Below are positions 4,127-50,980 of a DNA stretch of 64,000 nt, one piece after another (the stretch's first letter is position 1; each line of letters starts with the position of its first letter). This DNA is from a virus. A model generated the notes under the pieces. That model had not been told where the DNA came from, did not search any database, and was given only the letters and a program-made list of their open reading frames with translations. A program made the position numbers and the translations under genes. The stretch lies in UHGV virus genome UHGV-1364187; one strand, 5' to 3'.

Positions 4127-4160
4127 AGATTACACTATTTTTAGTGTAATCTATTTTTTA
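4127..4160 (+). terminator. rho-independent terminator AGATTACACTA-ttttt-TAGTGTAATCT then TTTTTTA
   Basis: 11-bp perfect stem plus T tract right after the 4114 stop. Confidence 0.75.
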
Positions 4161-4206
4161 ATTATATATTATACATATGAATATAATATTAAAAGGAGAG
4201 ATGTAT

Positions 4207-4380
4207 TATGGAAAAAGGAATTAAAGCATTAGGATTAGATATCCTTTTAAATGATAAAGATCAGAGAGTAAGAAGAAAAGTAGCAAGACATGGATATGGT
4301 TTAGATATCCTTGTTAAAGATGAAGATTATGATGTAAGAGCGGAAGCAGTTAAACAATTAAAATTAAGAAACAAATAATA
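4207..4380 (+). CDS. small leucine-rich-repeat-variant (LRV)-like repeat protein, 57 aa
   Basis: RBS AAAAGGAGAG. Internal duplication GLDILLNDKDQRVRRKVARHG / GLDILVKDEDYDVRAEAVKQL resembles the LRV/HEAT-like xxDxDxxVRxxAA repeat. Confidence 0.45.
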
Positions 4381-5404: not shown

Positions 5405-5442
5405 TCTCAATTATATATTATAACTATGAATAATATACATTG
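5405..5442 (+). promoter_or_regulatory. plus-strand copy of the conserved phage promoter motif TCAATTATATATTATAACTATGAATAATATA
   Basis: matches the consensus TTCAATTATATATTATATAAATGAATAATAATATT found upstream of many minus-strand genes, here in the opposite orientation; no protein gene follows. Confidence 0.5.
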
Positions 5443-5651
5443 ATTATATTATTGGAGCGTTATAATATTTGATTGGGAGACGATAATATGGTGACAAGAA
5501 TAAGGAATAGTATATCGTAATTGTACGGATGTCAAGACGTGTTATATTTAACTAGAAAGGGGGATTCGTACCATGCCAGACGATTACGAAACATACGGAA
5601 CAGAGTATTAAATAGTATTAATCCCAAAAAACATTAAAAACTGTTTTTTAT

Positions 5652-5692
5652 AAACACTAGATAGATTGGTAGCTATCTAGTGTTTATTTTTT
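5652..5692. terminator. terminator AAACACTAGATAG-loop-CTATCTAGTGTTT then ATTTTTT, between convergent transcription units
   Basis: 13-bp perfect stem; T tract on the plus side, A-rich on the other. Confidence 0.7.
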
Positions 5693-8043: not shown

Positions 8044-9066
8044 TTATAGTTGTATAAAAGTGTCAATAATTCTATCTGGGCTTACGCCATAATCTTTTTC
8101 TCCGATACAATTATTAGTGTGCAGATATGTTGGAATTCCAAAAACCTGCAATACTTGTGATAGTTGTATAAATTGTGCGATATCTACTTCACTATCACGA
8201 TATATGTGAACTTCACAATAGAACATATTAAGTTTAATTAATTGGTCTATTAGTGAAAGATAATTTTTATTCTGTAATGCATAGTATATACCTGGTTCTC
8301 TATTACGAAGATTTAAATATACCGATAATATATCAAAAGGACCTTCTGCCAAGCACACTAGCGTTCTTTTAGATGTATTTAAATATACCTGAGTAGGTAT
8401 AATATAATATGAATCATCCATATCATCATTGAATATTTTGTAGTTTACATATCTCTTATCTACATATTTAGAGACTTTCCCTTCTCTAAGATTTCTCATA
8501 TTTATAGCACCATTATGTCCAGCTATAAAACCAATAAATGAAGAGTTTAACTCATCCATTACCATTGGATATCTAGTATATTCTTTTATGTTATTATAAT
8601 TCAATAGATCATATAGATTTAAAACTATTTTAAGATTTATAATATCATTATAAGTAAGTTGAGTTCCTAAGCGTTTATTTATAAAAGCAAGTTTAAGTTC
8701 ACTCATCTTACTATCTGATATATACCCGTTCTGAATTGTATATATTCTTTGATTATTCTTATTTACTCTTGGTTTATATTTTGATTCTTTATACCCTTTG
8801 TTTAATTCTAATGCTAATTCAGAATCAAATATACCAATTGAATTTAAAAATTGAGTTGTGACTATTCCGCTATTAGGACATCTTTTACAATGGTACATCG
8901 GAATACCATTATTCATTCCTATATATAAATGTGTTGAATGATCGTCACAATTATTACATCTCATACATACTTCATTACCACCAGAACATGGTCTGGCTGA
9001 AGAAATATTTTCTAATAGCAAGCTTTTAAGATGTTCCCATATGTCTATATCTGCCATATTATTCAC
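8044..9066 (-). CDS. DNA primase (zinc-ribbon plus TOPRIM)
   Basis: Zinc ribbon: CSGGNEVCMRCNNCDDHSTH...HCKRCPNSG. TOPRIM: LAEGPFDILSVY with the E, plus YRDSEVD with the DxD. Confidence 0.7.
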   Translation of the reverse strand: MNNMADIDIWEHLKSLLLENISSARPCSGGNEVCMRCNNCDDHSTHLYIGMNNGIPMYHCKRCPNSGIVTTQFLNSIGIFDSELALELNKGYKESKYKPRVNKNNQRIYTIQNGYISDSKMSELKLAFINKRLGTQLTYNDIINLKIVLNLYDLLNYNNIKEYTRYPMVMDELNSSFIGFIAGHNGAINMRNLREGKVSKYVDKRYVNYKIFNDDMDDSYYIIPTQVYLNTSKRTLVCLAEGPFDILSVYLNLRNREPGIYYALQNKNYLSLIDQLIKLNMFYCEVHIYRDSEVDIAQFIQLSQVLQVFGIPTYLHTNNCIGEKDYGVSPDRIIDTFIQL

Positions 9067-9120
9067 CTCCTTATCTCACTATTATAATATATAATTATTA
9101 TATTGTTTACTATGAAATAA

Positions 9121-9738: not shown

Positions 9739-9770
9739 AATAGATCACTCCTTAAATTTTTATTATATAT

Positions 9771-9800
9771 TATTCACTTAAATAATATATAATTGAAATT
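9771..9800 (-). promoter_or_regulatory. conserved promoter motif (minus orientation) upstream of the 9738 gene
   Basis: reverse complement reads TTTCAATTATATATTATTTAAGTGAATAATATA. Confidence 0.5.
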
Positions 9801-10390: not shown

Positions 10391-12016
10391 CTATATTAGT
10401 AATAAATATATTAATACTTCTTCCATAATAATAGAAGGTATGTTTTCTACAATAGTCCCATTGAGTTCTGGATCATCATAATCTACAATCTTAAAAGTAC
10501 TTACTGATAAAGTTGCAATGAAAGATAGAATATCTTCTACAAATCTATCATGTTCTTTTCTAGATTGAGAATATCTCATTTTCATCTCTTTCTCTATATT
10601 AGGGTCATAATACATATTGCTATCAACTCCAACAATATCATTCATTGAGAATACGTTAGATAGACCTACATATTTCTCTATTACATATTTAAAGTAGATT
10701 GAGTTAGATAGTTCTGTATATTCTTTTTTATTGATATTCTTCTTCCTAATAAGCTTAACAACATTACCACTTATTATATATGGTAATATTCTTAAGTTAT
10801 GGCCTTCTAATAATCTCTTAGCAGCTATTACTAGTTTGATATATTCTTCTATATTATCAAGAGATTTGATACTCATTGGATCTCCAAAATACTTCATGAA
10901 TAGATTGAATACTAATTCTTTTTGAAATTTATTGATCTTTCCTCCGAACTCTTTATAATAGAAATTTATTTCGTCTTGTTCAAAAGGACCATATAACATT
11001 TCTATTTGCTTCATTGTATATGAGCAGTTTACATCATTTTGCAATAACAATGATTCATCATTACGAATTAATAAACTCTCATATTTATCAAACTCACTAT
11101 TATTATCTTCATCTCTGTTAGATAATGATAAAGGAATGAAACTGTATTCCCATGTAATACCAGTAATTTGAAATCCATTGTTGTTATTGATAGAACCAAA
11201 GTTCAAACTAACAATGTTCTTATTATATACATACTTAGGTAATACATTTAAGAGAATATTATCTATACATGATAATGCATGTGTAGTAACGTTTTTACTT
11301 CTGATATCTTGTTGATCCCACAATCCAGTATCACGCTTATATGAAGTATTAACATTTGTAATTGCTGTTTCATATAACTTATTGTATAGATCAACATCAC
11401 TGTACAATTCGATATTCAATAATATATCACATATTGTAAGAATAAAGTTATTGTCATCTTCTGAAGATCTCATATACATAAAATGACATGCTAATGGAAT
11501 GATCATATTCATTAACATACTAATTCTCATTAACAGTTTAGCATGTCTATTAGTATAACAAATAGCTGAATTGTTATTCTTATATACTAAGTCTATTATA
11601 TAATTATCATCGTTCATATTCTTAACTTTCCATAGAATAGTAGGAGATAATATATATCTTTGTATATCAGCTAAAAAATTGTCTTTGGTATAAGAAGCTT
11701 CATAATCGATAAGATATTTTATTTTAGAATAAATCATAAATAACTCTTTATCTTGATCATAGAACTTCTCGAAATAGTTTAAATAATGACACATATGCTC
11801 TTTCATCTCTTGAGTTGCATAGCATCGTTTGGACGTTAGAATAAAATAATCTATAGATCGTTTATCTTCATCATCTAATCCATAGAAATCGAAAATAGGA
11901 GCAACAAATGCTCCTTTACAATGTGTGAATAACATATCATCCTCATTAGGAATCCAATCATCCACTTTAGGATTGTTATAAGATCTCTCTTCTGATATTG
12001 TTGCTGGTACTATCAT
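10391..12016 (-). CDS. hypothetical protein (541 aa) starting with the terminal tag MIVPATISEERS
   Basis: RBS AAGGAGG-10 nt-ATG; N-terminal IVPATI plus charged module. Confidence 0.55.
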   Translation of the reverse strand: MIVPATISEERSYNNPKVDDWIPNEDDMLFTHCKGAFVAPIFDFYGLDDEDKRSIDYFILTSKRCYATQEMKEHMCHYLNYFEKFYDQDKELFMIYSKIKYLIDYEASYTKDNFLADIQRYILSPTILWKVKNMNDDNYIIDLVYKNNNSAICYTNRHAKLLMRISMLMNMIIPLACHFMYMRSSEDDNNFILTICDILLNIELYSDVDLYNKLYETAITNVNTSYKRDTGLWDQQDIRSKNVTTHALSCIDNILLNVLPKYVYNKNIVSLNFGSINNNNGFQITGITWEYSFIPLSLSNRDEDNNSEFDKYESLLIRNDESLLLQNDVNCSYTMKQIEMLYGPFEQDEINFYYKEFGGKINKFQKELVFNLFMKYFGDPMSIKSLDNIEEYIKLVIAAKRLLEGHNLRILPYIISGNVVKLIRKKNINKKEYTELSNSIYFKYVIEKYVGLSNVFSMNDIVGVDSNMYYDPNIEKEMKMRYSQSRKEHDRFVEDILSFIATLSVSTFKIVDYDDPELNGTIVENIPSIIMEEVLIYLLLI

Positions 12017-12043
12017 TTTATAAAACCTCCTTGTAGTATTATT

Positions 12044-12072
12044 TACTTCATATATATAATATATGATTTATT
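12044..12072 (-). promoter_or_regulatory. conserved promoter motif upstream of the 12016 gene
   Basis: reverse complement reads AAATAAATCATATATTATATATATGAAGT. Confidence 0.4.
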
Positions 12073-15231: not shown

Positions 15232-15247
15232 TACGTCTCTCCTTTCT

Positions 15248-15285: not shown

Positions 15286-15288
15286 TTT

Positions 15289-16472: not shown

Positions 16473-16599
16473 TATTACTTCTCTCCTCTATTATAATTTT
16501 GCCTTGAATTGGATAATACTTACCTTTAATTGTGTATCTTTCAGATGCACTGATTGCTGGTAGTTTTATTTCTTCTTTCTGTTTTTCTTTATTACTCAT
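16447..16599 (-). CDS. small hypothetical protein (50 aa, MSNKEKQKEEIKLPAISA...)
   Basis: RBS GGAGGAATTATAT ATG; consistent with the minus-strand operon direction. Confidence 0.3.
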   Translation of the reverse strand: MSNKEKQKEEIKLPAISASERYTIKGKYYPIQGKIIIEERSNNEVNEKNK

Positions 16600-16640
16600 A
16601 TATAATTCCTCCTTTTCACATTTATAATATATGATTGTAA

Positions 16641-24111: not shown

Positions 24112-24140
24112 TATGAACATCTCCTTTAATATTTATCATA

Positions 24141-24168
24141 TTCACTATAATAATATATAGTTGAAATT
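24141..24168 (-). promoter_or_regulatory. conserved promoter motif upstream of the 24111 gene
   Basis: reverse complement reads AATTTCAACTATATATTATTATAGTGAA. Confidence 0.5.
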
Positions 24169-25029: not shown

Positions 25030-25723
25030 TTATTCTTTTGGTTCTATTGTTGCTGGAACAATCAGTTGTTTAATCTCATTTACACTTTTATTGAGTTGAT
25101 TTTCCAGATTATCAATTCTAATATTCATTCCACATATAGCATTCATAATCTTTTGTTGATTACTTATAACAGATGGTATAAATATATCATTTAATAATTT
25201 ACCAATATTATATAACTGGTTAAGATTATCAATATCATACGAATTACCATTTATATCCATCATTGTTGTAAATGGATAATATTGAGTATTATCTGTAAAA
25301 GTATCTTTAACTTTATCTATTTCGTATATTGGATTATTCATTTGGAAATTTGGATCATGATTTTGATCTGTATATGTACCATTCATATAGATAGATGGTA
25401 ATAATTCATAAGAAATCCAATTCTTAAATTCTTCAGCGAATGGCATTTTAGAACTATAAATTAAATTGAATACATCTGGTAGTTTAATAAAATTTGTAGA
25501 ACGCTCTCTATTCATTGAATCTATTACCTGTTGTTTTGACAGGTAATCGCAATGTGCCTTTAATGCAAGAACGACTCTTTGGATGATAACCTAAAATATC
25601 TAACACATCATTAGCACAGAATAACGTATCCATCTGGTTACCACTCTCTGCTGGGATAATTCTTACACTTCCTAAATTGTTGAAAATAAACTCTTGTACT
25701 TTATTCATTTTTGATTCCTCCAT
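25030..25723 (-). pseudogene. Bro-N domain protein split into two ORFs (25723..25508 and 25515..25030); C-terminal tag QLIVPATIEPKE
   Basis: Both halves are paralogous to the 47344..46736 Bro-N protein. At the junction, AATAGA-ttcaatg-AATAGA looks like a 13-nt duplication that shifts the frame and creates a new ATG. Confidence 0.55.
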
Positions 25724-25760
25724 TTATTTTAAATTTTTTATTTTAAAATAGAATATTCTA

Positions 25761-25785
25761 TTCACTATAATAATATATAACTAAG
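25761..25785 (-). promoter_or_regulatory. conserved promoter motif upstream of the Bro-N gene
   Basis: reverse complement reads CTTAGTTATATATTATTATAGTGAA. Confidence 0.45.
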
Positions 25786-26083
25786 ATTTATATTAAAATA
25801 AAGACTAAGAGATTAAAATTCTCTTAGTCTTTATTATACTTTTTAGATTGCTCGTTTACAGGTTTTCTTTGTTTTGTTTTTCTTTTTGTTCTAAATGTAT
25901 CTTGTTCTTTAGCGTCGAAATCTTCCCATTCTTTAATAGCTGTTTCTAAGTTCATATTTTTCATTTTAATTTATCCTCTCTATGTAAAGTTTTATTCAAC
26001 TGTAACAAGACATTCATTAATAACTTCTTCAGCATACATATAAATTCCTCCCTCAAAATTAATAATACATAATTGTTAGCATG

Positions 26084-27772: not shown

Positions 27773-27810
27773 TATAAACATCTCCTTTGAATATATTATG
27801 TATTGTTTAT

Positions 27811-27837
27811 TTCATATATATAATATATAATTGAAAA
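27811..27837 (-). promoter_or_regulatory. conserved promoter motif upstream of the 27772 gene
   Basis: reverse complement reads CAATTATATATTATATATATGAAATAA. Confidence 0.5.
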
Positions 27838-29507: not shown

Positions 29508-30452
29508 TTAGTATAAGTTATCAAGTAAATAATCATATAGTATACTTAATATAATTGGTTTTATATAATCTTTAATACTTCCACATTCAAATAATGATTC
29601 GTCATAATTTGAGTTTATACATCTGCAATACATTGTAGCAACAATTCTATTAATACATTTGTATATATGTTCAACAAGATCATTAATACTATTAATATAC
29701 ATATTATCATGTAAATTAGTTTCGATTTTAATACCATATGAGTTATCTACTGTTGTGAATGATATAAAATTAAGTTTTGAACCATTATTATATAATGGTT
29801 CAAATATAATTATAGGATATAGTGATGTATCGAATAATAATGAAGAGAACATAATATCTAATTCTCTCTTATAACAATCATTCATATAATTAAAGAAATC
29901 ATATATATTGAATGTAGTCAATACACCATTACATATATTATTGTCTATATATTGTATAATTACGGATCTAATAAAATTTGTTCTTGAATCTAAATAATAA
30001 TCTGCAAACATATTCGCATCAATTTCATAGTCTATATTTTCATAATTATCTCTATAATTTTTATCATCTATTCCAGTTATTTCATATTTATTATTTTCCA
30101 TTTGCCATATATGTCTGCATTCATGTGCTAATGTATGAGCTAATCCTCTAATAAATATATGCATATTAAATCTTCTATGAAAATATATAATATTATTCAC
30201 AAAACAATCTATATTATATCTATCTTCATCTTCACTTGTTAGCATTCCTAATAAACCACCATTACTCATTTGTAACCCTTCATCATATAAAATGTATATA
30301 CATATAGGCTTCTTTGTTATATTCAATTCCGCAGTTAGATCATCTATAAATATCATACATAAGTCATATATTATTTTCTTTCTATCTGTAATAACGTTTG
30401 TAACTTGTATATTTTTATCAAATGTTGCTGGAATAACTGGCATTCTATCCAT
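29508..30452 (-). CDS. putative HExxH metallopeptidase; N-terminus MDRMPVIPATFDKN
   Basis: GLAHTLAHECRHIWQ contains HECRH; N-terminal terminal-tag module. Confidence 0.5.
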   Translation of the reverse strand: MDRMPVIPATFDKNIQVTNVITDRKKIIYDLCMIFIDDLTAELNITKKPICIYILYDEGLQMSNGGLLGMLTSEDEDRYNIDCFVNNIIYFHRRFNMHIFIRGLAHTLAHECRHIWQMENNKYEITGIDDKNYRDNYENIDYEIDANMFADYYLDSRTNFIRSVIIQYIDNNICNGVLTTFNIYDFFNYMNDCYKRELDIMFSSLLFDTSLYPIIIFEPLYNNGSKLNFISFTTVDNSYGIKIETNLHDNMYINSINDLVEHIYKCINRIVATMYCRCINSNYDESLFECGSIKDYIKPIILSILYDYLLDNLY

Positions 30453-30457
30453 AATCT

Positions 30458-31450
30458 CTATCTCCTATCTGTAATATAACGATCAAATAATATATATAAT
30501 TCTCTTGTAAATGATACTATAAACGAATCTATGGATTGTAATAAAGCTACACATACAAATGAATCATCTTTACTAATTCCCTCATCGTATATAATTTCAG
30601 ATGCTATATCTATAATAGATGAAACAAATAATGATTTAGTATAGCTTATAATAGACTCTAAATCATAATTTATCTTGATATTACAATTGAATTTTATAAC
30701 GCATGTATCTCTATTTAAATTATAGTCTATTATATAATAGACATCGTTCTGATCTTCCAAATACCAATTTTGATAAGATATCATTGTGTCTATATTCATT
30801 TCATCAAGTATAGATTGAATGTAATATGAATTATTAGAGACATAATATATCCAATGTATTAAATCGAACTCTGGTATATTGTTATATACACTATTTATTA
30901 TAACACAATGGATTAGTCTATATATGATACCATCTAAATATAGTTTATTGATTATCTGATTTGTATAACTTTCTATATCAGCATTATATTCATCATCTTC
31001 TATAATATCATAACCATCTACATATTCACAACAAGTCCATCCATATCCGAATATATTTGTAAATTGATATATAGACCTCATTATCTTTATAAATGATGGA
31101 AGTATTTTGATAAGATATTCTTCTACAGATAACATACTATATTTATTATCTATACTATACATATTTATATATATTCTGAATGTGTCTTTCATATTAAAGT
31201 CTGATGGATATTCTATATCCATTTCATATTCATTGCTAGAATACACAAACTCCAACACAATTCTATCAGCTACATCGCTTAAATCTAGATCATATTCTAA
31301 TATAGGTTTTATCCTATATAGAAAGTCTCTCAATATACGAGTTCTATCTTGATATATTGTTGCTGGTGATATTAGTTTTTTATGTTCTTTGTGTATTTCT
31401 GCTGGTACTATTAAATTATATTCTTTACATATCTCTGCTGGTATAATCAT
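30458..31450 (-). CDS. hypothetical protein with three tandem N-terminal tag repeats
   Basis: N-terminus MIIPAEICKEYNL-IVPAEIHKEHKKL-ISPATIYQDRTRIL. Confidence 0.55.
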   Translation of the reverse strand: MIIPAEICKEYNLIVPAEIHKEHKKLISPATIYQDRTRILRDFLYRIKPILEYDLDLSDVADRIVLEFVYSSNEYEMDIEYPSDFNMKDTFRIYINMYSIDNKYSMLSVEEYLIKILPSFIKIMRSIYQFTNIFGYGWTCCEYVDGYDIIEDDEYNADIESYTNQIINKLYLDGIIYRLIHCVIINSVYNNIPEFDLIHWIYYVSNNSYYIQSILDEMNIDTMISYQNWYLEDQNDVYYIIDYNLNRDTCVIKFNCNIKINYDLESIISYTKSLFVSSIIDIASEIIYDEGISKDDSFVCVALLQSIDSFIVSFTRELYILFDRYITDRR

Positions 31451-31481: not shown

Positions 31482-33551
31482 TTATTCTTCATCTCTTTTT
31501 ACTATCGTTGCTGGAACTACCATATCATTATTATATTTAACTTCTGTAGAATAATCCCCAGGAGCATTAATAAAATCATAATAGTTAACCATAAAGAATA
31601 AATCCATAAAACTTGGAGATCTCTTCTTAAATGTTGCTGCTGTATAAATAGCTCTCTTAGTTCTTTCATATGATAATGAGATAGCTACACTAGGATGATT
31701 ATTCAATGCTTTACTTAATGTCAAGATTGTATATCTGTTATTGTTAGGAATAGACCAATCTGGTTTTTCTAAGATTTCATCAGATTCAAGTCCAAGTCTA
31801 ATTTGATTTGCTATAATAACTTCACAGTGTATAGCATCTGTCTTTACATCACCCTCAATACATGTTTCAACAAATGTTTGGATTAATGAATCTATAGTAT
31901 GTTTAGATGTAACTTCGCTCTTATTGATAAGATTAGTTAATCTCTTAAGAGTATCAGCAAGACCATTATTTCTAATCTGCATCATAAATATATTCATTTC
32001 ATTAATCTCATCAAATGGTATTGTAACAATACCATCAACATCAGTATATTTATCTATCATAGCAGATAGTTCTGGTGTAAAGTAAATATCATCATCATCT
32101 TCTGTTGACAATGAGAATAAGTTTCCTTCTTCATCTCTAACTTTAATCTCACATACAGATTGATTATACTCATAGTTTTCATATTCATTTTCAATATGAA
32201 TTTCACTATCAATAATCAATAAAGTGTCTTTTATCTCTATATCATCTCTAATAGATATAAGATTTCCATCTAATATAAAGAAGTCACCAAATTGTTTAAC
32301 CCATTTAAGTTCTTTAATTTTCGCTTCTAATAGATGCTTTGCTGATAAAAGTTTTTGAGTCAATTCTGATGATAATAATTCAGCTGCAATCTTACCAATA
32401 TTGATATCCCTATTAGTGTATGCAACATCCCCATAACATTTATAACAAATACCATTACCTTCTGAAAATGATTTACATTTAGCAGGAGATCTAAAGTAAA
32501 CAGTTTTACCAATAAGATCCATTTCCATTCCTGTTATCATAAACTCTTGTCCATCTGGATAGAATCTATAATATCTAGAGATATATTTCTTCAGCATTTC
32601 ATAACTAGTAATAGTTATCTTAACGAAATTTCTTGTACCACAATCATAATTTGGATCTTCATTAAGCTCTGTATCTTGATTATTTAAACCTAATAAACGT
32701 GCTAAATGCCCACTATCAGATACATTAGTCTTAGATAATAATTGTGCAGTACGACCACTATATTCCTCAATAGTGTGTTCTGTAGCATTACTTAATCCAC
32801 CAACAATATAGTTTGAATTAATAATCTTACTAAAGATCCCACCAACTCCATTTGGTTTAGCACCACCAGCTACAGCAAACTCTCTATGCTGTTTCTTATT
32901 AATAGCTTCTCTAGCTTTAAATGAATCTTTATAACAATGATCTTCTGAATTTTTAATAATATCAACAAGTTCATCATTAAGTTGATTTGCTATATTATTA
33001 ACTTCATTTATAGGATATCCAGATAAATCACAATGCATAATATCGTATGCTCTCGGGTTTTCATTCATAAGATCTCTATAATCTTTAAGATTAGCAGTAT
33101 TAGCCAAGAACATACTAAATTCATCTATAGATTTGAATTGATATTCGATATCATCTATGATATTATTTAACCTAATATTATCCATATCTTTTCTATATGG
33201 AATAATAAGATAATTATTGATAAAGTCTGCTATCATGTCAGCTACAAAATCATCTTCAAATACTAGATGTTTTGGTTCGATATGATTTCCTGTCATAACT
33301 ACAAGTTTCCATAATGCTATATTAGTATAACTATCTGGTATTGACAAATCAACATCTGTACCATCGTCAAACACATAAGTGATAAAGTTGGACATTACTT
33401 GATCACTATTAATTCCATCTCTTAATACATTTAAGAGAGAGTTAAAGTAATAATCTACATTATCAGATGTAATATCTTTTGTGTAGATTATTGTTTTCTC
33501 GCCTCTTGTAAAACTTACAAAAGGACCATAGTTTTCTGGATAATCAAACAT
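31482..33551 (-). CDS. multisubunit RNA polymerase beta-prime homolog, C-terminal fragment; C-terminal tag [14 protein letters not shown]
   Basis: [53 protein letters not shown] aligns to the beta-prime trigger-loop region SPLTC..[63 protein letters not shown] aligns to [22 protein letters not shown] (region F). Confidence 0.7.
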   Translation of the reverse strand: [689 protein letters not shown]

Positions 33552-33600
33552 TAATATCCCTCCTATTTTTCTTAATATATTAAAGTTAATTCTTGTGTAA

Positions 33601-33633
33601 CTTTCAAATATATAATATATGATTTCATTTCAT
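33601..33633 (-). promoter_or_regulatory. conserved promoter motif upstream of the beta-prime C-fragment gene
   Basis: reverse complement reads ATGAAATGAAATCATATATTATATATTTGAAAG. Confidence 0.4.
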
Positions 33634-34366: not shown

Positions 34367-34393
34367 AACTTAAACATCTCCTTTATTATTCTT

Positions 34394-34425
34394 TTATTCA
34401 ATAGTATAATATAATAATTGAAAAT
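34394..34425 (-). promoter_or_regulatory. conserved promoter motif plus AAAGGAGATGTTTAAGTT leader upstream of the 34366 gene
   Basis: reverse complement reads ATTTTCAATTATTATATTATACTATTGAATAA. Confidence 0.45.
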
Positions 34426-35108: not shown

Positions 35109-35735
35109 TTATAATTCTTCTACTGATTCTCTTCCATCATTATTTATAATATTGTATGGTTCTTTAACATTTACAATTATTAAATCTGAACAACTTGTGT
35201 CTGCTTTACTACCTAATTCTTCTACTACTCTTATTAAATTTTCATCATCTCTTTTTATATCTTCAAAATTAAAGTCTATTTTTTCGCATAATTTAACATC
35301 TTCGATTTCTTCATCATAATAAGTATTAGTAAAGAATATACTATCTGAATTAATACGATATGATATGCTCAAAAATAATTCTGTAACTAATTTAGCTTTA
35401 TTGTCATCTATAGTCTTAAAATATGCGTATACATCTGAATTTGTTCTAAGTTTTAGATATTCAATACATGCTAACACACTTAAATCAAACCTACCAAAAC
35501 AATCATTAATTACTATTTGTTTCGTATTTTCTTTATCACTATCATGTTTATAATAAGAATATAATTCATCTGAATATATCATCTCATTACCACGATAATA
35601 TTGTTTTTCAATACTAACTTCAGCTTCTTGTTCAAAGTATTCTTCCAATTCTTCATTTTTATGTCCTAAGAATAAAACTACTTTTTCTAATAAACCACTT
35701 TTTTCATTGAATCTTTCATCTAATACTTTAATCAT
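35109..35735 (-). CDS. hypothetical protein
   Basis: ORF directly behind a conserved leader cassette. Confidence 0.5.
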   Translation of the reverse strand: MIKVLDERFNEKSGLLEKVVLFLGHKNEELEEYFEQEAEVSIEKQYYRGNEMIYSDELYSYYKHDSDKENTKQIVINDCFGRFDLSVLACIEYLKLRTNSDVYAYFKTIDDNKAKLVTELFLSISYRINSDSIFFTNTYYDEEIEDVKLCEKIDFNFEDIKRDDENLIRVVEELGSKADTSCSDLIIVNVKEPYNIINNDGRESVEEL

Positions 35736-35764
35736 AATTAAACATCTCCTTTAGATATAATATT

Positions 35765-35797
35765 ATTATTCATTTATATAATATATAATTGAAATAA
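35765..35797 (-). promoter_or_regulatory. conserved promoter motif TTTCAATTATATATTATATAAATGAATAATAATATT
   Basis: perfect consensus copy. Confidence 0.55.
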
Positions 35798-35805
35798 TGC
35801 TTTTT

Positions 35806-36195
35806 TTACAAATCTTGTTTAAAATATACATATTCTATACCATCATCATCTGTTCTGACTATATAATCACTACCATCAGGAATTTCAACTACTCTAAATT
35901 TATCACTTTCATATTCTTCCACAATAGATATAAATAATTCATCTGTTCTGTTATAATCTGTAATAGCATTTATACTTATATAATTTGTTTCTAATATATC
36001 GTTACATACATAGAATGTATACTCTATACATATCATATTTTTTACATCATTAAGTTTACATTTTTCGTTTCTATTAAAGAGTACATTTTTAGAGTATATT
36101 TCTATACTCTCTGTATTATACTTACGTCTTAAGTACTCATATACAGTCTTCACTCTAAGAATGTTGTTTAATTGATTTGATAAAATTACTTTCAT
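35806..36195 (-). CDS. hypothetical protein
   Basis: the MFIMK artefact trimmed to MKVILSN. Confidence 0.45.
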   Translation of the reverse strand: MKVILSNQLNNILRVKTVYEYLRRKYNTESIEIYSKNVLFNRNEKCKLNDVKNMICIEYTFYVCNDILETNYISINAITDYNRTDELFISIVEEYESDKFRVVEIPDGSDYIVRTDDDGIEYVYFKQDL

Positions 36196-36225
36196 TATAA
36201 ACATCTCCTTTTAATATTATATTCA

Positions 36226-36252
36226 TTTATATAATATATAATTATAATATTT
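36226..36252 (-). promoter_or_regulatory. conserved promoter motif AATTATATATTATATAAATGAATATAATATT
   Basis: consensus copy. Confidence 0.55.
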
Positions 36253-36326: not shown

Positions 36327-37373
36327 ATGGTCTTAGAAGAAAATTTAAATGATATGGAAGTTATCAAAAGATACAAGCAATTTTTTAAGGAGATGATTTG
36401 GTTTAATAAACCAAACATATCTGAGCAAGAATTAGAAGATGTAATGAATTGGTCAATACAGAAGAGAATCAAAAATTCATCATTAGAATTATATGATTCT
36501 TATAAGGAAAAACGAGCAGATTCATCAGTATTAGAATGGCTAGAATACTTCTATGCTAATGAACCAATTATAACTCCCAATGGGGTTATGTTTAAAAAAC
36601 ATAATGAAGAGCTTAATCCTGTGAATAAAATGATACAGGGATTCTTAAAAACACGTGCTAAATACAAAAAAGAAATGTTTAAATATCCTAAAGGATCTCG
36701 TGAATTTGAAAAATATAACCTACTTCAACTTCTCTCCAAGATTGATGCTAATAGTATATATGGTTGTTTAGGTAATTGGAGTGCTGTATATTATAACGTA
36801 AATGTTGCTAGTTCAGTTACAGCATGTGGTAAATCTTCTATTTCAGCAGCAGGTTTAGCATTTGAACAGTTCTTAGCAAATAACGTTAAATTTAGAAAGT
36901 TAGACGAAGTTATAGTATTTATTAATCATATCATTAAAGAAAAACCAAATAGAAAATTCAATGATAAAGATATTCTAGATAGAGATATTACAGTAGAAGA
37001 ATGTTTTATAAAAGTAATGTCTACATGTGGTCATGGTTATACTCCTTCTATGGAAGATTGTGAAATCATATGGGATATTATTAGTAAACTTAACAGTGAA
37101 GATCTTAATAGAATATACTATAAGAATAATCTATTAGAATTCTTTGACAATAAAGTAATGACTAATATGGTTATAGAAGTATTAAAGAGACTCAATAAAC
37201 CTTGGATGGATCCGAATAAAGTTCCAAAAGAAATTGAACTTGAAATGGATACAATGTGGGATTTAGTAAGTGAATATGTATTTTATAAATATCAAATCAT
37301 TGATAGACAAGATAGATTAGAGTTTCTTCCAAGAAAAATTACATGTATTATAGACACCGACTCTTTTGCATAA
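36327..37373 (+). CDS. family-B DNA polymerase, C-terminal (palm/thumb) part, exon 1
   Basis: Motif B QLLSKIDANSIYGCLGN (KxxxNSxYG) followed by ASSVTACGKSSI. Motif C TCIIDTDSFA (DTDS) lies at the very end of the ORF. No motif A (DxxSLYPS) and no exonuclease domain, so the N-terminal half must be encoded elsewhere. Confidence 0.75.
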   Translation: MVLEENLNDMEVIKRYKQFFKEMIWFNKPNISEQELEDVMNWSIQKRIKNSSLELYDSYKEKRADSSVLEWLEYFYANEPIITPNGVMFKKHNEELNPVNKMIQGFLKTRAKYKKEMFKYPKGSREFEKYNLLQLLSKIDANSIYGCLGNWSAVYYNVNVASSVTACGKSSISAAGLAFEQFLANNVKFRKLDEVIVFINHIIKEKPNRKFNDKDILDRDITVEECFIKVMSTCGHGYTPSMEDCEIIWDIISKLNSEDLNRIYYKNNLLEFFDNKVMTNMVIEVLKRLNKPWMDPNKVPKEIELEMDTMWDLVSEYVFYKYQIIDRQDRLEFLPRKITCIIDTDSFA

Positions 37374-37778
37374 TAAACTGTTTTATTATGTAAATAGGAG
37401 CATTATATAGTAATATATAATGAAAACCCTTTTAATTGCTGGGAAGCCTTAAAGCTCACCTGCCTATATTTTAATGAATATAGGAACGAAAGTAGAAACA
37501 AGTGGTGAGATAGTATATGGTGTAAACCTAAGTACTGCAAACAATGGGTAATCAGCAGCGAAGTTTCTTATAAAGTTATAAGAAGAACGTTCAACGACTA
37601 TCGAAAAGACATGTTTATATAAACATGGAACTGAGTAGAGTACACTCAAGTGAGTGGAAATGGAGGGGGTCTTATTTTATATAAGATCATGATATAGTCT
37701 GCTCACTATGGAAACATAGTGAAGTTCATAAGAGAACTGCATAGAATTAACGACTCTATGTGAACATAAAGGAATATT
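37368..37778 (+). mobile_element. ORF-less group I intron inserted immediately after the PolB DTDS codons; boundaries approximate
   Basis: TTAATTGCTGGGAAGCCTTAAAGCT...AATCAGCAGCGAAGTT and GTTCAACGACTATCGAAAAGACATGT...ACATGGAACTGAGTAGAGTACAC...AGTGGAAATGGAGGGGG...GATATAGTCTGCTC match the intron in the beta-prime gene block for block (P7-like GACTAT/ATAGTC). A P9-like hairpin CACTATGgaaaCATAGTG follows. Confidence 0.75.
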
Positions 37779-38849
37779 TTGAACTTAGATTTTTGGTATA
37801 GATTTATCAAAGATAAAGTAATCGGTATTGATATGAAAATTAAACATGAAATGTATGACATTGCAGAAATCATTAAAGCTGATGAATTTGGTGATAGAGA
37901 AATGATGAAGCCTGCAGAGATAGTAGATATCGAAGATGATTATGATTTCTATGAAGATGAAACAGTAGAAATGGAAAGATTAATCAATCCTGCAAAATTA
38001 GTACCAAATGACTCATTAAGATATTCTATAATAAATATTATAGCATACTTATGTGGTAATATGATTAATGAAGAGATGGTATTATACACAAAACAGAACA
38101 ATTCTTATAGTCCTGATAGACCATGTAGTCTTATTATGAAGAATGAATTCTTATTTAAAAGAGTTTTATTGACAAATGTAAAGAAAAGCTACGCTAGCAT
38201 CATAGAGGTTCAGGAAGGAAATATAGTACCATCTTCCAGTTCATTGGACGTGAAAGGATTACAAATTAGAAAATCAACACTACCAAAAAGAACAAGAGAT
38301 CAATTACAAAGTATATTATATGAAGATATACTAAACTCTGGAGATAATCTCGATCAAAGATGCATACTCAAAGATATTATATTATTAGAAAAACAAATTT
38401 ATAAATCACTTACATCTGGTAGTAAAGAATACTTTAGACCAGCACAAGTTAAAGCTATGGGATCATATGAAAATCCACTAAGAATTTCTGGATTTAAGGG
38501 ATGTGTTGTATGGAATGAGTTAACAGATCTTAATACAGAAAAACATGATCTTAATATTAGAAATGCTGTTGATATTATCAAAGTAGTTTTAAATGCAAAA
38601 ACTGTCGATAAATTAAAAGATTTTCCTGATGTATATGAGAGAGCTGTGAAGCTATTAAACGATCCATCATTTGCAGGGGGAATTAATGGTATATCTGTAC
38701 CATTAGGAGTAGAAACACCAGAGTGGTTATATCAAATTATCGATTATAATACAATTATTAATGATAATTTATCAGTAATGCCATTAGAAAGTGTAGATAT
38801 AATTATTGGAAATTCCAATATAAACTATTCAAATATGGTGCAAATGTAA
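37779..38849 (+). CDS. family-B DNA polymerase, exon 2 (thumb)
   Basis: Open frame resumes right after the intron core. The ORF-track TTG at 37779 is not a real start. Exact 3' splice site not determined. Confidence 0.6.
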   Translation: MNLDFWYRFIKDKVIGIDMKIKHEMYDIAEIIKADEFGDREMMKPAEIVDIEDDYDFYEDETVEMERLINPAKLVPNDSLRYSIINIIAYLCGNMINEEMVLYTKQNNSYSPDRPCSLIMKNEFLFKRVLLTNVKKSYASIIEVQEGNIVPSSSSLDVKGLQIRKSTLPKRTRDQLQSILYEDILNSGDNLDQRCILKDIILLEKQIYKSLTSGSKEYFRPAQVKAMGSYENPLRISGFKGCVVWNELTDLNTEKHDLNIRNAVDIIKVVLNAKTVDKLKDFPDVYERAVKLLNDPSFAGGINGISVPLGVETPEWLYQIIDYNTIINDNLSVMPLESVDIIIGNSNINYSNMVQM

Positions 38850-38850
38850 A

Positions 38851-38886
38851 AAAATAAAAGAAGAGTCAATTAAGACTCTTCTTTTA
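38851..38886. terminator. bidirectional terminator AAGAAGAGTCaattaaGACTCTTCTT
   Basis: 10-bp stem with A6TAAA / T4ATT flanks. Confidence 0.7.
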
Positions 38887-39469
38887 TTATTGTTGCTGGA
38901 ATAATTAATTTATTGTATCTCATCTCTGCATGTGTGCCATACTCATCATATGGAAGATTATTATCAACTCCAGCAAAGTTTAAAAACTCGTTAGAATCTA
39001 CTAAATTATTATTGCTTATAATATTTCCTATAGATTCTAATGATCCATCTAATTGATTTTTATCAATTTCTAATGTATTAGTAATTCCTTTATCACTATC
39101 ACCCCATTGAACATGATATTCATATGGAGCATCCGATATTGGATTACCATATAAATCACATTGTCTAACTTGACATAATCTCATATCAACTCCAACTGTA
39201 GGTCTCATAATTCCATCATAATTATAAAAACAATTAGTTTGAGTATAAAAATGTACAACACAATCATTTGATATATCTGTGTTTATGTAGTTAGATTTAA
39301 TATAGTCTATAATCCATTGTGTAGTGTTACTATCGTTTCTATATACAAAATCGTTTCTAAACATAATTTCATCATAGAATTCGCTTGTATCTGGATTTAG
39401 GTTACAGTCATCAGATACAATAAGACAATTAGTCTCATAGTTTAATAATACATATAAATTTTTTAACAT
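38870..39469 (-). CDS. hypothetical protein; C-terminal tag KLIIPATIIKEES
   Basis: The ORF-track GTG start lies inside the RBS AAAAGGTGG; trimmed to the ATG at 39469. Confidence 0.5.
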   Translation of the reverse strand: MLKNLYVLLNYETNCLIVSDDCNLNPDTSEFYDEIMFRNDFVYRNDSNTTQWIIDYIKSNYINTDISNDCVVHFYTQTNCFYNYDGIMRPTVGVDMRLCQVRQCDLYGNPISDAPYEYHVQWGDSDKGITNTLEIDKNQLDGSLESIGNIISNNNLVDSNEFLNFAGVDNNLPYDEYGTHAEMRYNKLIIPATIIKEES

Positions 39470-39498
39470 AACACATTCCACCTTTTCATAATATTATT

Positions 39499-39528
39499 TT
39501 ACACATATATAATATATAATCTAAAATG
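39499..39528 (-). promoter_or_regulatory. conserved promoter motif upstream of the 39469 gene
   Basis: reverse complement reads CATTTTAGATTATATATTATATATGTGTAA. Confidence 0.45.
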
Positions 39529-40528: not shown

Positions 40529-40557
40529 AATAAAACAACTCCTTTAAATTTAATATT

Positions 40558-41020: not shown

Positions 41021-41074
41021 AACTAAACAACTCCTTTAAATTTTTAGTAACATAGACTATTTACAATCATCTAT

Positions 41075-41107
41075 ATTCACCTTAATAATATATAAGTGAA
41101 ATATGAG
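41075..41107 (-). promoter_or_regulatory. variant promoter motif CTTATATATTATTAAGGTGAATATAGA
   Basis: same architecture as the copy at 48955-48986. Confidence 0.45.
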
Positions 41108-41689: not shown

Positions 41690-42697
41690 TTAAATTGCTA
41701 CTGAAGCTTTAATAGCATCACCACATTTATATCCATTAATCTTAATATCTTCTAGTTTAATATTTCTAATATCTTCGCCTAATAGATCTTTAGTAAATTC
41801 AATCTTAGGTAAGTCGTATAATTCTCTAGATAGATATTCTTTTGCCTGATCAATATGATTTTGGTAAATATGTGTATCGCCAAAATTATATGTCATTGTT
41901 CCAACTTGTAATCCACTAATAGCACCCATCATATGTAAAAAGATTCCATATTCTGCTAAATCAAATGGAACCCCTAGAATACTGTCAGCACTACGTTGAT
42001 TTACAATCATATGTAATTTATCATTGATTACTAAAAACTGGATAGAAAATACACAAGGTGGTAAATCTACATAAGGAACACTAGCAGTATTCCATGAATT
42101 AAGAATAATTCTTCTTGAATCTGATTTACTCTTAATAAGTTTTTGTGTAATATCTAATTGGTCTACAATGTTCACAACGACTTCTTGTTCTTGAGTATTC
42201 ATATTATTCATTTCTACATGTTTATTATACTTCCAAGCATTACCATAGATATCTTCATATACTGTAAGTTCTCTAGATGTAATTTCATCATTAAGAATCT
42301 TTTGTTCAAAGATATCGAGTTGTTCTCTATATAGTTTAGCAAATTCTTCATCCTTATCTTTTAATACAGTCCAATTGTCTGGGAATACTGGTCCTGTATA
42401 TTTTTCATTTTCTGGGCATTTTCCCTCAATATATCTTTTAAATTTCCATTCTGTCCAGATATGTACATTTTGCTCTAATAATGTCTTTAAGTTTTGTTCT
42501 CCATTAATGAACCATAAAAGTTCTTTAATAGCTGTTCTATAAGCAGTTCTTTTTCCAGTAACAATAGGAACACTACCATCTGATAAATCAAATTTCATAC
42601 TATAACCAGGAATACGGATAGTTCCTACTCCAGTTCGGTCTGTGCTAACTTCACCTGTTTCTAAAATAGTTTTAATCATTTCTTTATATTGTTTCAT
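41690..42697 (-). CDS. thyA: thymidylate synthase family enzyme (ThyA-like; a dCMP or dUMP hydroxymethylase cannot be excluded)
   Basis: MKQYKEMIKTILETGEVSTDRTGVGTIRIPGYSMKFDL...VTGKRTAYRTAIKELLWFINGEQN and DLPPCVFSIQFLV...NQRSADSILGVPFDLAEYGIFLHMM...GDTHIYQNH align with the ThyA signature including the catalytic Cys (PPC). Confidence 0.75.
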   Translation of the reverse strand: MKQYKEMIKTILETGEVSTDRTGVGTIRIPGYSMKFDLSDGSVPIVTGKRTAYRTAIKELLWFINGEQNLKTLLEQNVHIWTEWKFKRYIEGKCPENEKYTGPVFPDNWTVLKDKDEEFAKLYREQLDIFEQKILNDEITSRELTVYEDIYGNAWKYNKHVEMNNMNTQEQEVVVNIVDQLDITQKLIKSKSDSRRIILNSWNTASVPYVDLPPCVFSIQFLVINDKLHMIVNQRSADSILGVPFDLAEYGIFLHMMGAISGLQVGTMTYNFGDTHIYQNHIDQAKEYLSRELYDLPKIEFTKDLLGEDIRNIKLEDIKINGYKCGDAIKASVAI

Positions 42698-44532: not shown

Positions 44533-44603
44533 AATTTCTTTTTTTCATTGATTTTAACATATTATATTTCATAATAAAAAACATCTCCTTTAATATTATT
44601 ATT

Positions 44604-44630
44604 CAATTATATAATATATAATTAAAACTA
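44604..44630 (-). promoter_or_regulatory. conserved promoter motif TTTAATTATATATTATATAATTGAATAATAATATT
   Basis: consensus copy. Confidence 0.55.
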
Positions 44631-46623: not shown

Positions 46624-46735
46624 TATAAACATCTCCTTTAAAATTTACATTATTATTTATTATTAACAGATTTTCTGTTAATGATATTTATATCTTTCTT
46701 CTTTCGGAACAAGTATTGCTGGAACAACCATATGT

Positions 46736-47344
46736 TTACCATCTACATATTTTTGAACTATTAAGAAGTTGTTGTTGCATTTGCTGTATTTGATTGTTTA
46801 CATTTTGTTCCAAATTAGTTATTCTATTGTCGATATGATCACAAACATTTCCTAACATACTAGACACTACTCTAGTTATATCATATGTAAGCTGTTGTGA
46901 ATTAAAATGGAATTTAGTTTCACCTAAATCATCTTTGATATACGTTTCATTCATATTACCATATATCGCTTCCATTATATTTTCAGCATCAACTACAGGA
47001 TTAGATACATGATAATTTGGATTATGTTGATTTGATGTATATTGTCCAGTGTGATAAATATCTATAAGAACTTCATGTGTAACCCAATTAAAGAACTCTG
47101 TAGCTTTTGGCATTCTAGAACTTTTCACTAAATCCAATAGACCTGATAAAGAAACAAATGTCATATTATTTCGTCTTCCTAAAGAATCGACGCTACTCCA
47201 AATCGACGTATCGTCCTTTTTACAATGTTTACGTATTGCATCATTTGTCCTTGAATATCCTAAAATCTCACATACATCTCTACCACAATATAATACATCT
47301 TGTTCGTTTCCTCCTTCTGGTATAATAAATTCTAACATTTCCAA
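46736..47344 (-). CDS. Bro-N domain protein; a second frame continues to a C-terminal tag (VQKYVDGKHMVVPAILVPKEER)
   Basis: N-terminus MEMLEFIIPEGGNEQDVLYCGRDVCEILGY... is Bro-N-like and paralogous to 25723..25030. The tag that ends its paralog is present here only in another frame downstream of the annotated stop (46690-46760). Confidence 0.6.
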   Translation of the reverse strand: MEMLEFIIPEGGNEQDVLYCGRDVCEILGYSRTNDAIRKHCKKDDTSIWSSVDSLGRRNNMTFVSLSGLLDLVKSSRMPKATEFFNWVTHEVLIDIYHTGQYTSNQHNPNYHVSNPVVDAENIMEAIYGNMNETYIKDDLGETKFHFNSQQLTYDITRVVSSMLGNVCDHIDNRITNLEQNVNNQIQQMQQQLLNSSKICRW

Positions 47345-47445
47345 ATGTTCATTGTAATAATTCTTGAACTACATTGTTTTTATCTTGTTCCATAATATTA
47401 TCCTCCATAATGTTTAAAATTTATAGTGAATATAGATCATTCTAT

Positions 47446-47476
47446 ATTCACTATAATAATATATAATTGTAAATCG
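47446..47476 (-). promoter_or_regulatory. conserved promoter motif upstream of the Bro-N gene
   Basis: reverse complement reads CGATTTACAATTATATATTATTATAGTGAAT, same variant as at 25761 and 24141. Confidence 0.5.
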
Positions 47477-48372: not shown

Positions 48373-48954
48373 TTATCATTTATGCATTTTAGATTAATGA
48401 TTTATCTTTAATCTTCATCATTTGAATAAGTATCTATATAATATTCATCTTCTATAGAACTTGTATGAACAGTTTCCGTATTTAGTACTTTATCTACTAA
48501 TCTTATACTAATTTTACTAATAGCTTCACTTATTTTCTTAGATACATAATATGTAACTGCTACATATCAAACTAATTTTACTACAAATTTATATCCAGTC
48601 ATAACTTTTTCCATATTAAACTTTTTCATATCTTATCTCTCCTTTTTTATTATTTACTACTCTTCGATTTGTTCTTCTGATTCTCTTTTTAATACACTTT
48701 TAATTTTAGATGATATTTTTGTAAAAACTTTCTTAATAAAATCTACACCACTTGTCATCATAACGAATATACTAAGTACGAATGCTGCACCTATCACTGC
48801 ACCAACAATAATCTCTCCAACTACTGTGAAGATGTCCTTATCAATTTTCTTTGTCTAAAGCTTTCTTGTAATCATTTGCAAATTGTACTAACTCTTTTTT
48901 CATAACTAAACAACTCATTTTAATTTTTAATAACATAGACTAATTGTAATCTAT

Positions 48955-48986
48955 ATTCATATTGATAATATATAACTAAAATTTTG
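48955..48986 (-). promoter_or_regulatory. variant promoter motif TTAGTTATATATTATCAATATGAATATAGATTACAATTAGTCTATGTTA
   Basis: near-identical to the copy at 41075-41107, including the downstream TAGTCTATGTTA and the AAAGGAGTTGTTTAGTTATG leader. Confidence 0.45.
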
Positions 48987-50755: not shown

Positions 50756-50784
50756 AATAAAACATCTCCTTCTAATAATATTAT

Positions 50785-50812
50785 TCACTTATATAATATA
50801 TAATTAAATTTT
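50785..50812 (-). promoter_or_regulatory. conserved promoter motif AAATTTAATTATATATTATATAAGTGAATAATATT
   Basis: consensus copy. Confidence 0.55.
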
Positions 50813-50885
50813 TTTTTAATCATATATTATTGTAGTGACTATATTAAAGTTTTATTAAACTTCTAACAAGAAAGTAAGGGGCTTT

Positions 50886-50935
50886 TAAAGGCGTTGACCA
50901 AGAACCCTTAAAAGGTAGATAAGGGAAGAACAAAG
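50886..50935 (+). promoter_or_regulatory. candidate sigma-A-like promoter (TTGACC ...16 nt... TAGATA) in a GC-richer divergent intergenic region
   Basis: CGTTGACCAAGAACCCTTAAAAGGTAGATAAGG; the -10 element is weak; would drive the plus-strand block starting at 50981. Confidence 0.25.
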
Positions 50936-50980
50936 ATAAGACTTTAATACAAATACAGATATATAAAAGGAGATAATAAC

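Follow-up and report, generated by a model that had tools for sequence, protein, structure and literature searches.

The window analysed here, 64,000 nucleotides long, spans bases 6605-70604 of a 256,505-bp ENA metagenome contig with a GC content of ~26%. At positions 35736-35800 the minus strand reads ttcaattatatattatataaatgaataataatattatatctaaaggagatgtttaattATG, a cassette whose presence had been described correctly in the original prediction. It combines a predicted early promoter with a 36-nt 5'UTR containing AAAGGAGATGTTT (35736..35794; predicted +1 G at 35771) and precedes the ATG at 35735 of a 208-aa gene assigned to phrog_16527. A near-identical cassette with a 29-nt leader (36196..36247, minus strand; +1 G 36224) precedes the gene starting at 36195. 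The two genes (35806-36195 and 35109-35735) are paralogues, both belonging to phrog_16527.

The RNA polymerase genes and the phage of origin

The window encodes homologues of two AR9 proteins on its minus strand: g154, the beta' C-terminal subunit of the non-virion RNA polymerase (nvRNAP; 31482..33551, 689 aa), and g226, the nvRNAP promoter-specificity subunit (10391..12016, 541 aa). [quoted passage not shown] Its match in the AR9-like phage Goe21 corresponds, via a coordinate offset, to the AR9 virion-polymerase gene g145. A primase gene lies downstream of the g226 homologue, with two genes between them. The window codes also for a major capsid protein, a GroEL-like chaperonin, a prohead protease, terminase, tail sheath and a thymidylate-synthase homologue, and its family-B DNA polymerase gene is split by a group I intron. 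No tRNAs were found in the window, and none of 50,697 phage records matched in a near-identity DNA search with 10 kb. The nvRNAP beta'-C, g226-like and vRNAP beta'-N homologues, together with the gene content of the window, identify the source by its sequence as an uncultured jumbo phage of the AR9/phiKZ type, predicted to have two multisubunit RNA polymerases.

Predicted promoters and the genes that they precede

Copies of the promoter motif were collected by searching for TATATATTAT with at most one mismatch, followed by N6-G. Inspection of the hits led to 19 sites with an exact [T/C]ATATATTAT, which is invariant in their alignment. A G is positioned exactly 6 nt after the element in 19/19 sites, and its role as transcription start is predicted from the sequence. 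Columns that were not used for site selection are conserved as well, with A in 18/19 sites at -19, A in 16/19 at -18, T in 18/19 at -17, T in 19/19 at -1, and A in 18/19 and 17/19 sites in columns +1 and +2, respectively. The window consensus is tttCAAT[T/C]ATATATTAT-N4-[G/A]T-G-AA or, written out, tttCAATTATATATTATwwaaGTGAA.

A scan of the window with a weight matrix spanning -23 to +4, which had been proposed originally as a means of defining the regulon, gave 19 strong sites (score of at least 20) with scores of 20-35. All 19 are intergenic, the intergenic share of the window being 11.4%, and 0.43 hits are expected in Markov-1 random sequence at a score of at least 12, a lower threshold than the 20 used to define strong sites. 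With one additional degenerate copy, there are 17 minus-strand and 3 plus-strand copies. The strong sites are divided into 16 on the minus strand and 3 on the plus strand, the latter with predicted starts at 4179, 5428 and 50837. Every copy is intergenic and oriented toward its downstream gene. The predicted starts are separated from the start codons by 18-58 nt, except for 144 nt at one site (50837). The associated AAAGGAGATGTTT sequence (at most one mismatch) occurs 10 times, on the minus strand only, compared to 0.23 occurrences expected.

The highest matrix score, 34.5, belongs to the predicted promoter with a 37-nt leader at 9739..9798 (minus strand; +1 G 9775), which precedes a 195-aa gene starting at ATG 9738. 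Also on the minus strand, the DNA primase gene (ATG 9057) is preceded by a copy with a 20-nt leader (9058..9100; +1 G 9077). Three further minus-strand copies have the form CATATATTAT. One of them (12017..12072; +1 G 12049, 33-nt leader) precedes the g226-like specificity-subunit gene, and another (16600..16640; +1 G 16617) has an 18-nt leader whose Shine-Dalgarno (SD) sequence starts at +5, ahead of a small ORF at ATG 16599. The third (33552..33628; +1 G 33605, 54-nt leader) precedes the nvRNAP beta'-C gene, and its segment also has a late-like AACT-N6-TA with a start of its own at 33576.

Other minus-strand copies with leaders of similar length are found before ATG 24111 (24112..24166; +1 G 24143, 32-nt leader), before ATG 27772, where the promoter follows a terminator hairpin (27773..27836; +1 G 27813, 41-nt leader), before the 199-aa gene at ATG 39469 (39470..39525; +1 G 39502, 33-nt leader) and before a 66-aa gene at ATG 25708 that is followed by a Bro-N gene at 25030-25515 (25709..25786; +1 G 25763, 55-nt leader). 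A copy with a 32-nt leader at 44573..44627 (minus strand; +1 G 44604) serves the AAA+ ATPase gene. The promoter predicted there is indeed present, but the true gene start is ATG 44572 and not 44562, the frame being then broken at an A7 run near 44545. At 50756..50809 (minus strand; +1 G 50786) a 31-nt leader precedes a 91-aa gene with ATG 50755, and a divergent plus-strand copy (50814..50980; +1 G 50837) has a 144-nt structured leader ahead of a gene at 50981.

Three minus-strand leaders open with a hairpin at their 5' terminus. The 55-nt leader at 48904..48981 (+1 G 48958) ends at ATG 48903 of a 20-aa ORF with the translation-initiation region TGAGTTGTTTAGTT, and the 58-nt leader at 41021..41101 (+1 G 41078; ATG 41020) carries AAAGGAGTTGTTTAGTT. 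The hairpin of the third, at 47394..47472 (+1 G 47449), has 9 bp. The transcript from this promoter would run through a 14-codon upstream ORF at 47393 and then the Bro-N/Ant gene (46736-47344). The copy assigned in the original prediction to the gene start at 47344 therefore exists, but its predicted start site lies 105 nt from that start codon, which is behind the upstream ORF. Likewise, the copy before ATG 34366 exists (34367..34422, minus strand; +1 G 34399, leader with AAAGGAGATGTTT) but is degenerate: it retains the TATATTAT core and has 2 mismatches further upstream. A terminator hairpin immediately precedes it.

The remaining plus-strand copies are found at 4156..4207 (+1 G 4179), with a 29-nt leader (AAAGGAGAGATG) before a 56-aa gene at ATG 4208, and at 5405..5690 (+1 G 5428), where the predicted early promoter would drive a structured region of ~260 nt with two terminator hairpins at its end. 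No long ORF was found in this ~260-nt region and no Rfam family matched it. Two minus-strand segments have the leader sequence with no promoter: AAAGGAGATGTTTATA at 46624..46641, ahead of ATG 46623 in an internal gene of the 47449 operon, and AAAGGAGTTGTTTTATT at 40529..40545, ahead of ATG 40528 in an internal gene of the 41078 operon. The leader-only copy before 46623 and the plus-strand copy at 5405-5442 agree with the original prediction. All sites that it listed exist, and four were missed (plus-strand 4179 and 50837; minus-strand 16617 and 9077).

The genes bearing the motif include the g154 and g226 homologues, primase, AAA+ ATPase, Bro-N and many small ORFs. The motif was not found in the window before the genes for the major capsid protein, protease, terminase, sheath and vRNAP beta'-N, nor before those for DNA polymerase and thymidylate synthase. 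The assignment of AAA+ and Bro-N genes to this group was right, but that of the DNA polymerase gene was not. Absence of the motif from the plus-strand structural block, as claimed, holds for terminase and sheath, but does not amount to a strand rule: the minus-strand capsid/chaperonin block lacks it too, and the plus strand has three copies of its own. The distribution of the motif follows gene class and not strand.

A different motif, AAC[A/T]-N6-TA(at), is found 18-45 nt upstream of 22/77 genes compared to 4.3 expected (controls 5-9; p = 1.6e-10). Among them are the genes coding for capsid, protease, terminase, DNA polymerase and thymidylate synthase. By itself this late-like pattern is barely enriched in intergenic DNA (42/265 hits), only its positional enrichment at 18-45 nt being significant. 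[quoted passage not shown]

Leader sequences and start codons

The original prediction saw a conserved transcribed leader behind the promoter. The sequence is a predicted 5'UTR, but its stereotyped form AAAGGAGWTGTTT is present on ~60% of the promoters only. The shared translation-initiation region reads AAAGGAG[A/T]TGTTT-N3-6-ATG, compared to AAGGAGGAAtt-ATG for the usual ribosome-binding site of the phage, and the usual counterpart of the AAAGGAGATGTTT region is AAGGAGGAATT. The AAAGGAG[A/T]TGTT flavour (or GGAGAGATG) is found at 9/15 promoter-proximal genes versus 3/62 others (Fisher p = 5e-6). Most leaders are predicted to be unstructured; those of 48958, 47449 and 41078 open with the 5'-terminal hairpin GAAUAUAGA...UCUAU. 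Over 56 nt, first codons included, the 41078 leader matches that of 48958 with 88% identity.

The distance of this sequence from the predicted start site varies from +16 to +44, which makes the leader flavour a feature of the start codon rather than of the promoter. The flavour recurs in relatives with 57-76% beta' identity and is absent from the 117 promoters of other IMG/VR phages (0/117), showing that it is lineage-specific. The variable distance and the absence from those 117 promoters also led to rejection of the leader as a part of the promoter. Our reading is that early transcripts preferentially use this translation-initiation region for their first gene and that duplication accounts for part of its spread.

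The ATG within GGAGATG is in frame at 36204, 27781, 24120 and 46632, 9 nt before a second ATG, and ORFs opened at the first of these codons begin with MFIMK. The four cases were identified correctly in the original prediction, which considered the downstream ATG (36195, 27772, 24111 and 46623) to be the likely real start. The upstream ATG was rejected as a start codon: its frame is not conserved, several copies have TTG instead and it abuts GGAG without a spacer. Public gene calls on the contig already use the downstream ATG for 3/4 of the MFIMK genes (129, 273 and 281 aa). MFIMK is an artefact that arises only when ORFs are read naively. This systematic start-codon trap and the homopolymer frameshift in the AAA+ gene are now flagged for annotation.

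Candidate mechanism and competing explanations

The motif copies are best explained as early promoters of an AR9-like jumbo phage, probably read by an RNA polymerase carried in the virion, a reading to which we give a probability of roughly 85%. It builds on the motif with its statistics and orientation, on its identity to mapped AR9 promoters, on its conservation and on the gene content of the window; homology points to vRNAP recognition, the start-site position and the timing. According to this model, a multisubunit vRNAP would be injected along with the phage DNA and would recognise AAT[T/C]ATATATTAT at about -19 to -7, with a T-rich TTTCA upstream. Transcription would begin at the invariant G, 6 nt past the element, in the context T(-1) G(+1) A A. 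The G of TGAA is designated as the start because the sites match AR9 promoters with their 6-nt spacing to G. A start 10-40 nt downstream of the motif cassette had been anticipated; the predicted start is instead inside the cassette, 6 nt after TATATTAT, so that the "leader" (GAATAA to ATG) would be the whole 5'UTR.

The 5'UTR would be 18-58 nt long, A/U-rich and mostly unstructured, and would bear the SD. Each transcript is expected to span one to few early genes and to end at intrinsic-type hairpin terminators, whose T-tails would often run into the following promoter. Terminator-like hairpins number 23 in the window compared to 2.7 expected, and several adjoin the T-rich upstream edge of a promoter. 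The proposal that the cassettes form one temporal promoter class of a phiKZ/AR9-type RNA polymerase of the phage is supported by the RNA polymerase genes, by the match to AR9 promoters and by the presence of the motif before the same genes.

Many phages drive their early genes from strong host promoters. The consensus could be read as a sigma-A (sigma-70 type) promoter, with TTCAAT as -35 box and, after 17 nt, AATAAT as extended -10 box with TG just upstream, the AT-rich spacer being UP-like. This is very unlikely. The invariant positions -16 to -7 would sit in the spacer, which is normally not conserved, and conservation is weak in the hexamer that would serve as -10 box (+1 to +6), with T in 13/19 sites at +3, A in 15/19 at +4 and about half at +5 and +6. 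With a start ~13 nt downstream, transcripts of promoters 16617 and 9077, where the SD begins at +5 and +7, respectively, would lose their ribosome-binding site. Sigma-70-like sites are not enriched in the window (163 versus 190.7 in shuffles). The weak -10, the conserved spacer, starts past the SD and this lack of enrichment all set the sites apart from the bacterial sigma-70/sigma-A promoter class. Moreover, transcription from the same motif in AR9 depends neither on host RNA polymerase nor on new protein synthesis (PMC5312081), and the motif is kept in phages of 21-41% GC, so presumably in varied hosts. It is highly improbable that the cassettes arose chiefly by duplication or gene conversion, as mobile modules like those of T4 whose identity reflects recent copying and not selection at each position. 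Copying would account for the near-identical cassettes of the paralogues 35806-36195 and 35109-35735, for the likeness of the 41078 and 48958 leaders and for the lineage-specific leader flavour missing from the 117 other promoters. It explains why some copies are alike, but not what they do. Orthologues with as little as 42% protein identity still have the promoter core at the corresponding position, the core is also conserved in AR9, and for most copies similarity ends at the cassette edges. Duplication does not conflict with the promoter explanation but complements it.

The least probable of these explanations takes the motif for a 25-bp imperfect palindrome, TTCAATTATATA-T-TATATAAnTGAA, that would act as operator of a dimeric regulator or as an N4-like DNA hairpin or cruciform, and not as a linear promoter. 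The sites do form 8.05/12 complementary pairs compared to 4.4 +/- 1.6 for AT-rich 25-mers, weak mirror-image matrix hits are found on the opposite strand, and the consensus of N1M2 and OBP has the TTTCA...TGWA arrangement too. However, all sites face their downstream gene in the same way, no opposite-strand score exceeds 15 compared to 20-35 for the sites themselves, and the invariant core TATATATTAT lacks self-complementarity. DNA hairpins are predicted with a mean energy of only -1.2 kcal/mol and 4/19 sites have no structure, unlike the 5-7 bp stem and 3-nt loop of N4-type hairpin promoters. Working AR9 promoters are less symmetric (6.6/12 pairs) than the window sites. A doubtful variant leaves the promoter in place and holds that AAAGGAG[A/T]TGTTT-N3-6-ATG may be a dedicated cis-element beyond a ribosome-binding site, and that the TTCA...TGAA dyad could reflect recognition of symmetric or melted DNA. 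The former could be bound by a factor of the phage or the host that sets the timing of translation of the first transcripts or enhances it, or could be a module spread by gene conversion. The latter would bear on the recognition mode of a sigma-less virion RNA polymerase, the dyad being common to OBP and N1M2.

Conservation of the motif and comparison with known promoter systems

Among the candidates scored, 969 beta' homologues have an E-value of 1e-20 or better. A single-protein search of IMG/VR with beta' gave no confirmed relative, and relatives were reached via the protein database and exact-protein contig look-ups. The motif precedes the beta' orthologue and other genes in contigs whose beta' is 76%, 64% and 57% identical. 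It persists at 45% and 42% beta' identity, for example as TATATACTAT-N6-G before beta', and a relative genome with 41% GC has tttcaatTATATATTATagatatGaat elsewhere in its sequence. The exact 20-base pattern TTCAATTATATATTAT-N5-TGAA is found at more than 112 IMG/VR loci with GC contents of 21% to 40%, mostly in contigs of 200-290 kb, several of which hold more than one copy. The AR9-type promoter and its flanks (TTTCA and T-G-A-A) are thus conserved across a very large metagenomic clade, over 21-41% GC and down to ~27% beta' identity. Such breadth makes an analysis of promoter/polymerase co-variation feasible. The analysis also maps the early regulon in one part of this uncultured jumbo phage of 256 kb, with 20 predicted start sites, operon boundaries and corrected start codons.

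The closest known system is that of AR9/PBS1. Its early consensus, AAATATATATTAT-(6N)-G(+1), was established by dRNA-seq and primer extension (Lavysh et al. 2017, PMC5312081). Neither host RNA polymerase nor newly made protein is needed for early transcription in AR9, which has been ascribed to the virion polymerase injected by the phage (PMC5312081), while the late promoter AACA-(6N)-TA/G is read by g226 (PMC5312081, PMC7598289). The window motif agrees with the early consensus at 12/13 positions and has the identical 6-nt spacing to the invariant G. The core and this spacing are common to the window sites and the 23 promoters annotated in the AR9 record, of which that of g001 reads ttcAATTATATATTAT. 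As with their homologues in the window, g154 and g226 each have an early promoter in AR9, the g154 leader being ~54 nt long in both phages. Both phages also have a second, AACA-N6-TA-like promoter class before virion genes, and the beta'-C and primase genes with their two motifs resemble the continuously expressed genes of AR9. Both genomes are ~250 kb long with ~27% GC and have group I introns, in the DNA polymerase gene here and in several other genes in AR9.

The two phages differ in a number of details. Position -17 is A in AR9 and T in the window, and the T at -1 and AA at +1/+2, near-invariant in the window, are variable in AR9. The late-like motif is mostly AACT here and not AACA. DNA polymerase, an early-class function in AR9, has no early motif in the window, and the primase gene adjacent to g226 in AR9 is separated from its homologue here by the two intervening genes. 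A thymidylate-synthase homologue is encoded here, suggesting that the phage DNA may not contain dU. The best protein matches to cultured phages are only ~25-35% identical.

An AT-rich element of ~10 nt near -10 was reported upstream of early operons in every jumbo phage that encodes RNA polymerases (PMC7598289). In the later papers searched, promoter recognition is described for nvRNAP only. The Staphylococcus (S. aureus) jumbo phage MarsHill has TATATTAT, identical to the window core, upstream of 29 genes. The consensus published for Pseudomonas phage OBP and Klebsiella phage N1M2, TTTCARRYAKATATTATYWAAGTGWA, fits that of the window position by position, including TTTCA and GTGWA. MarsHill, OBP, N1M2, 201phi2-1 and phiKZ (TATATTAC) share with the window the ATATTAT core, the upstream TTTCA, the downstream GTG(W)A and their spacings. 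These phages differ in their hosts and in details of -18 to -15, several are nucleus-forming Chimalliviridae, and their motifs are mostly predictions without mapped start sites. The consensus that the original prediction had read from the sequence alone had already been published for AR9, MarsHill, OBP and N1M2.

The PeSL cassettes of phage T4 combine an early promoter with a stem-loop; their promoters are of the host sigma-70 type, and what defines them is the part that they play in recombination between genomes. The window cassettes are likewise short repeated promoter modules between early genes in which terminator hairpin, promoter and leader form one unit. Some of their copies are clearly duplicated, and the duplicated leaders and paralogous neighbours give partial hints of a T4-like role. 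The window motif is a clear new example of the known AR9-type early-promoter class and not a new kind of element, to which it adds two modestly new points only, the lineage-specific leader and the breadth of conservation.

Predicted products of the early promoters

Three early leaders on the minus strand, which extend from the predicted start sites 48958, 47449 and 41078 (48958-48904, 47449-47394 and 41078-41021), have a 5'-terminal stem-loop of the form GAAUAUAGA...UCUAU(AUUC), with whole-leader folds of about -10 to -11 kcal/mol. A related contig (L010) has leaders that resemble them. These stem-loops may stabilise the early mRNAs at their 5' ends.

The plus-strand early-type promoter with its predicted start site at 5428 precedes a region of about 260 nt (5428-5690) in which no ORF exceeds 38 aa. 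The region features an RNA fold z-score of -4.0, a GC content higher than that of the flanking sequence and two terminator hairpins at its end, while an Rfam search of it gave no significant match (best E = 0.57). It also holds two mini-ORFs, MVTRIRNSIS and MPDDYETYGTEY, each preceded by a Shine-Dalgarno sequence. The transcript is a candidate early non-coding RNA or else codes for the two mini-ORFs.

The same early promoter is found in another jumbo-phage contig, L042 (IMGVR_UViG_3300031555_003590), with a tRNA-gene-like start (gggcctttagctcagccggttagag) about 55 nt downstream. The genes driven by early promoters of the AR9-like class may thus include tRNA genes.

A terminal peptide shared by early proteins

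At least seven early proteins, all encoded on the minus strand (31482-33551, 10391-12016, 30458-31450, 29508-30452, 38870-39469, 25030-25515 and 46736-47344), carry at their extreme amino or carboxyl terminus the motif [ILMV][IV][IV]PA[TEI]I with charged residues after it. It ends the beta'-C protein homologous to AR9 g154 (31482-33551; ...MVVPATIVKRDEE before the stop codon) and a Bro-N protein (...LIVPATIEPKE before the stop codon), and it opens the homologue of the AR9 non-virion RNA polymerase (nvRNAP) specificity subunit g226 (10391-12016; MIVPATISEE). A similar hydrophobic-Pro-hydrophobic motif with an acidic tail is kept in many beta'-C homologues across the clade. The terminal PA[TEI]I peptide may be a docking motif.

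Interrupted and irregular genes

The family-B DNA polymerase gene is split into two parts (36327-37373 and 37779-38849) by a group I intron on the plus strand (37377-37721; Rfam RF00028, 81.6 bits). The AAA+ ATPase gene starts at an ATG (44572, minus strand) behind a canonical leader and its frame is broken within 44532-44572, at a run of seven A; dropping one A makes it colinear with the orthologue in contig L007 (MRIHSTLKSIKKEIMISLSTAATV). Either an assembly indel or slippage accounts for this break. ORFs 14631-15479 and 15289-16146 lie on the same strand and overlap by about 190 nt, and the promoter with its predicted start site at 16617 is followed only by short ORFs (16447-16599 and 16281-16472), the plus-strand ORF that faces them being probably spurious. 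The segments 14631-16146 and 16165-16599 could represent a frameshift or pseudogene region.

A second, late-promoter-like motif and the DNA base

Of the 77 start codons in the window, 22 are preceded at a distance of 18-45 nt by a further conserved motif, (tt)AAC[T/A]-N6-TA(at), where 4.3 would be expected (about 22 sites, positions 22354-62163). Examples of its predicted starts are 55236, 57482, 59284, 61388, 51602, 36302, 22398 and 24196 on the plus strand, and 42727, 19725, 17887 and 12849 on the minus strand. The genes behind it include those for capsid, terminase, protease, DNA polymerase and thymidylate synthase. The last of these, a thymidylate-synthase family gene (41690-42697, minus strand; 335 aa; phrog_160, E = 1e-84), suggests that the phage DNA may hold T or a modified T, unlike the dU-containing DNA of AR9 and PBS1, a distinction that would matter for the reading of its AAC-type late promoters. 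The motif is similar to the AR9 late promoter AACA-N6-TA/G, used by the nvRNAP with g226, but its fourth base is mostly T where AR9 has A.
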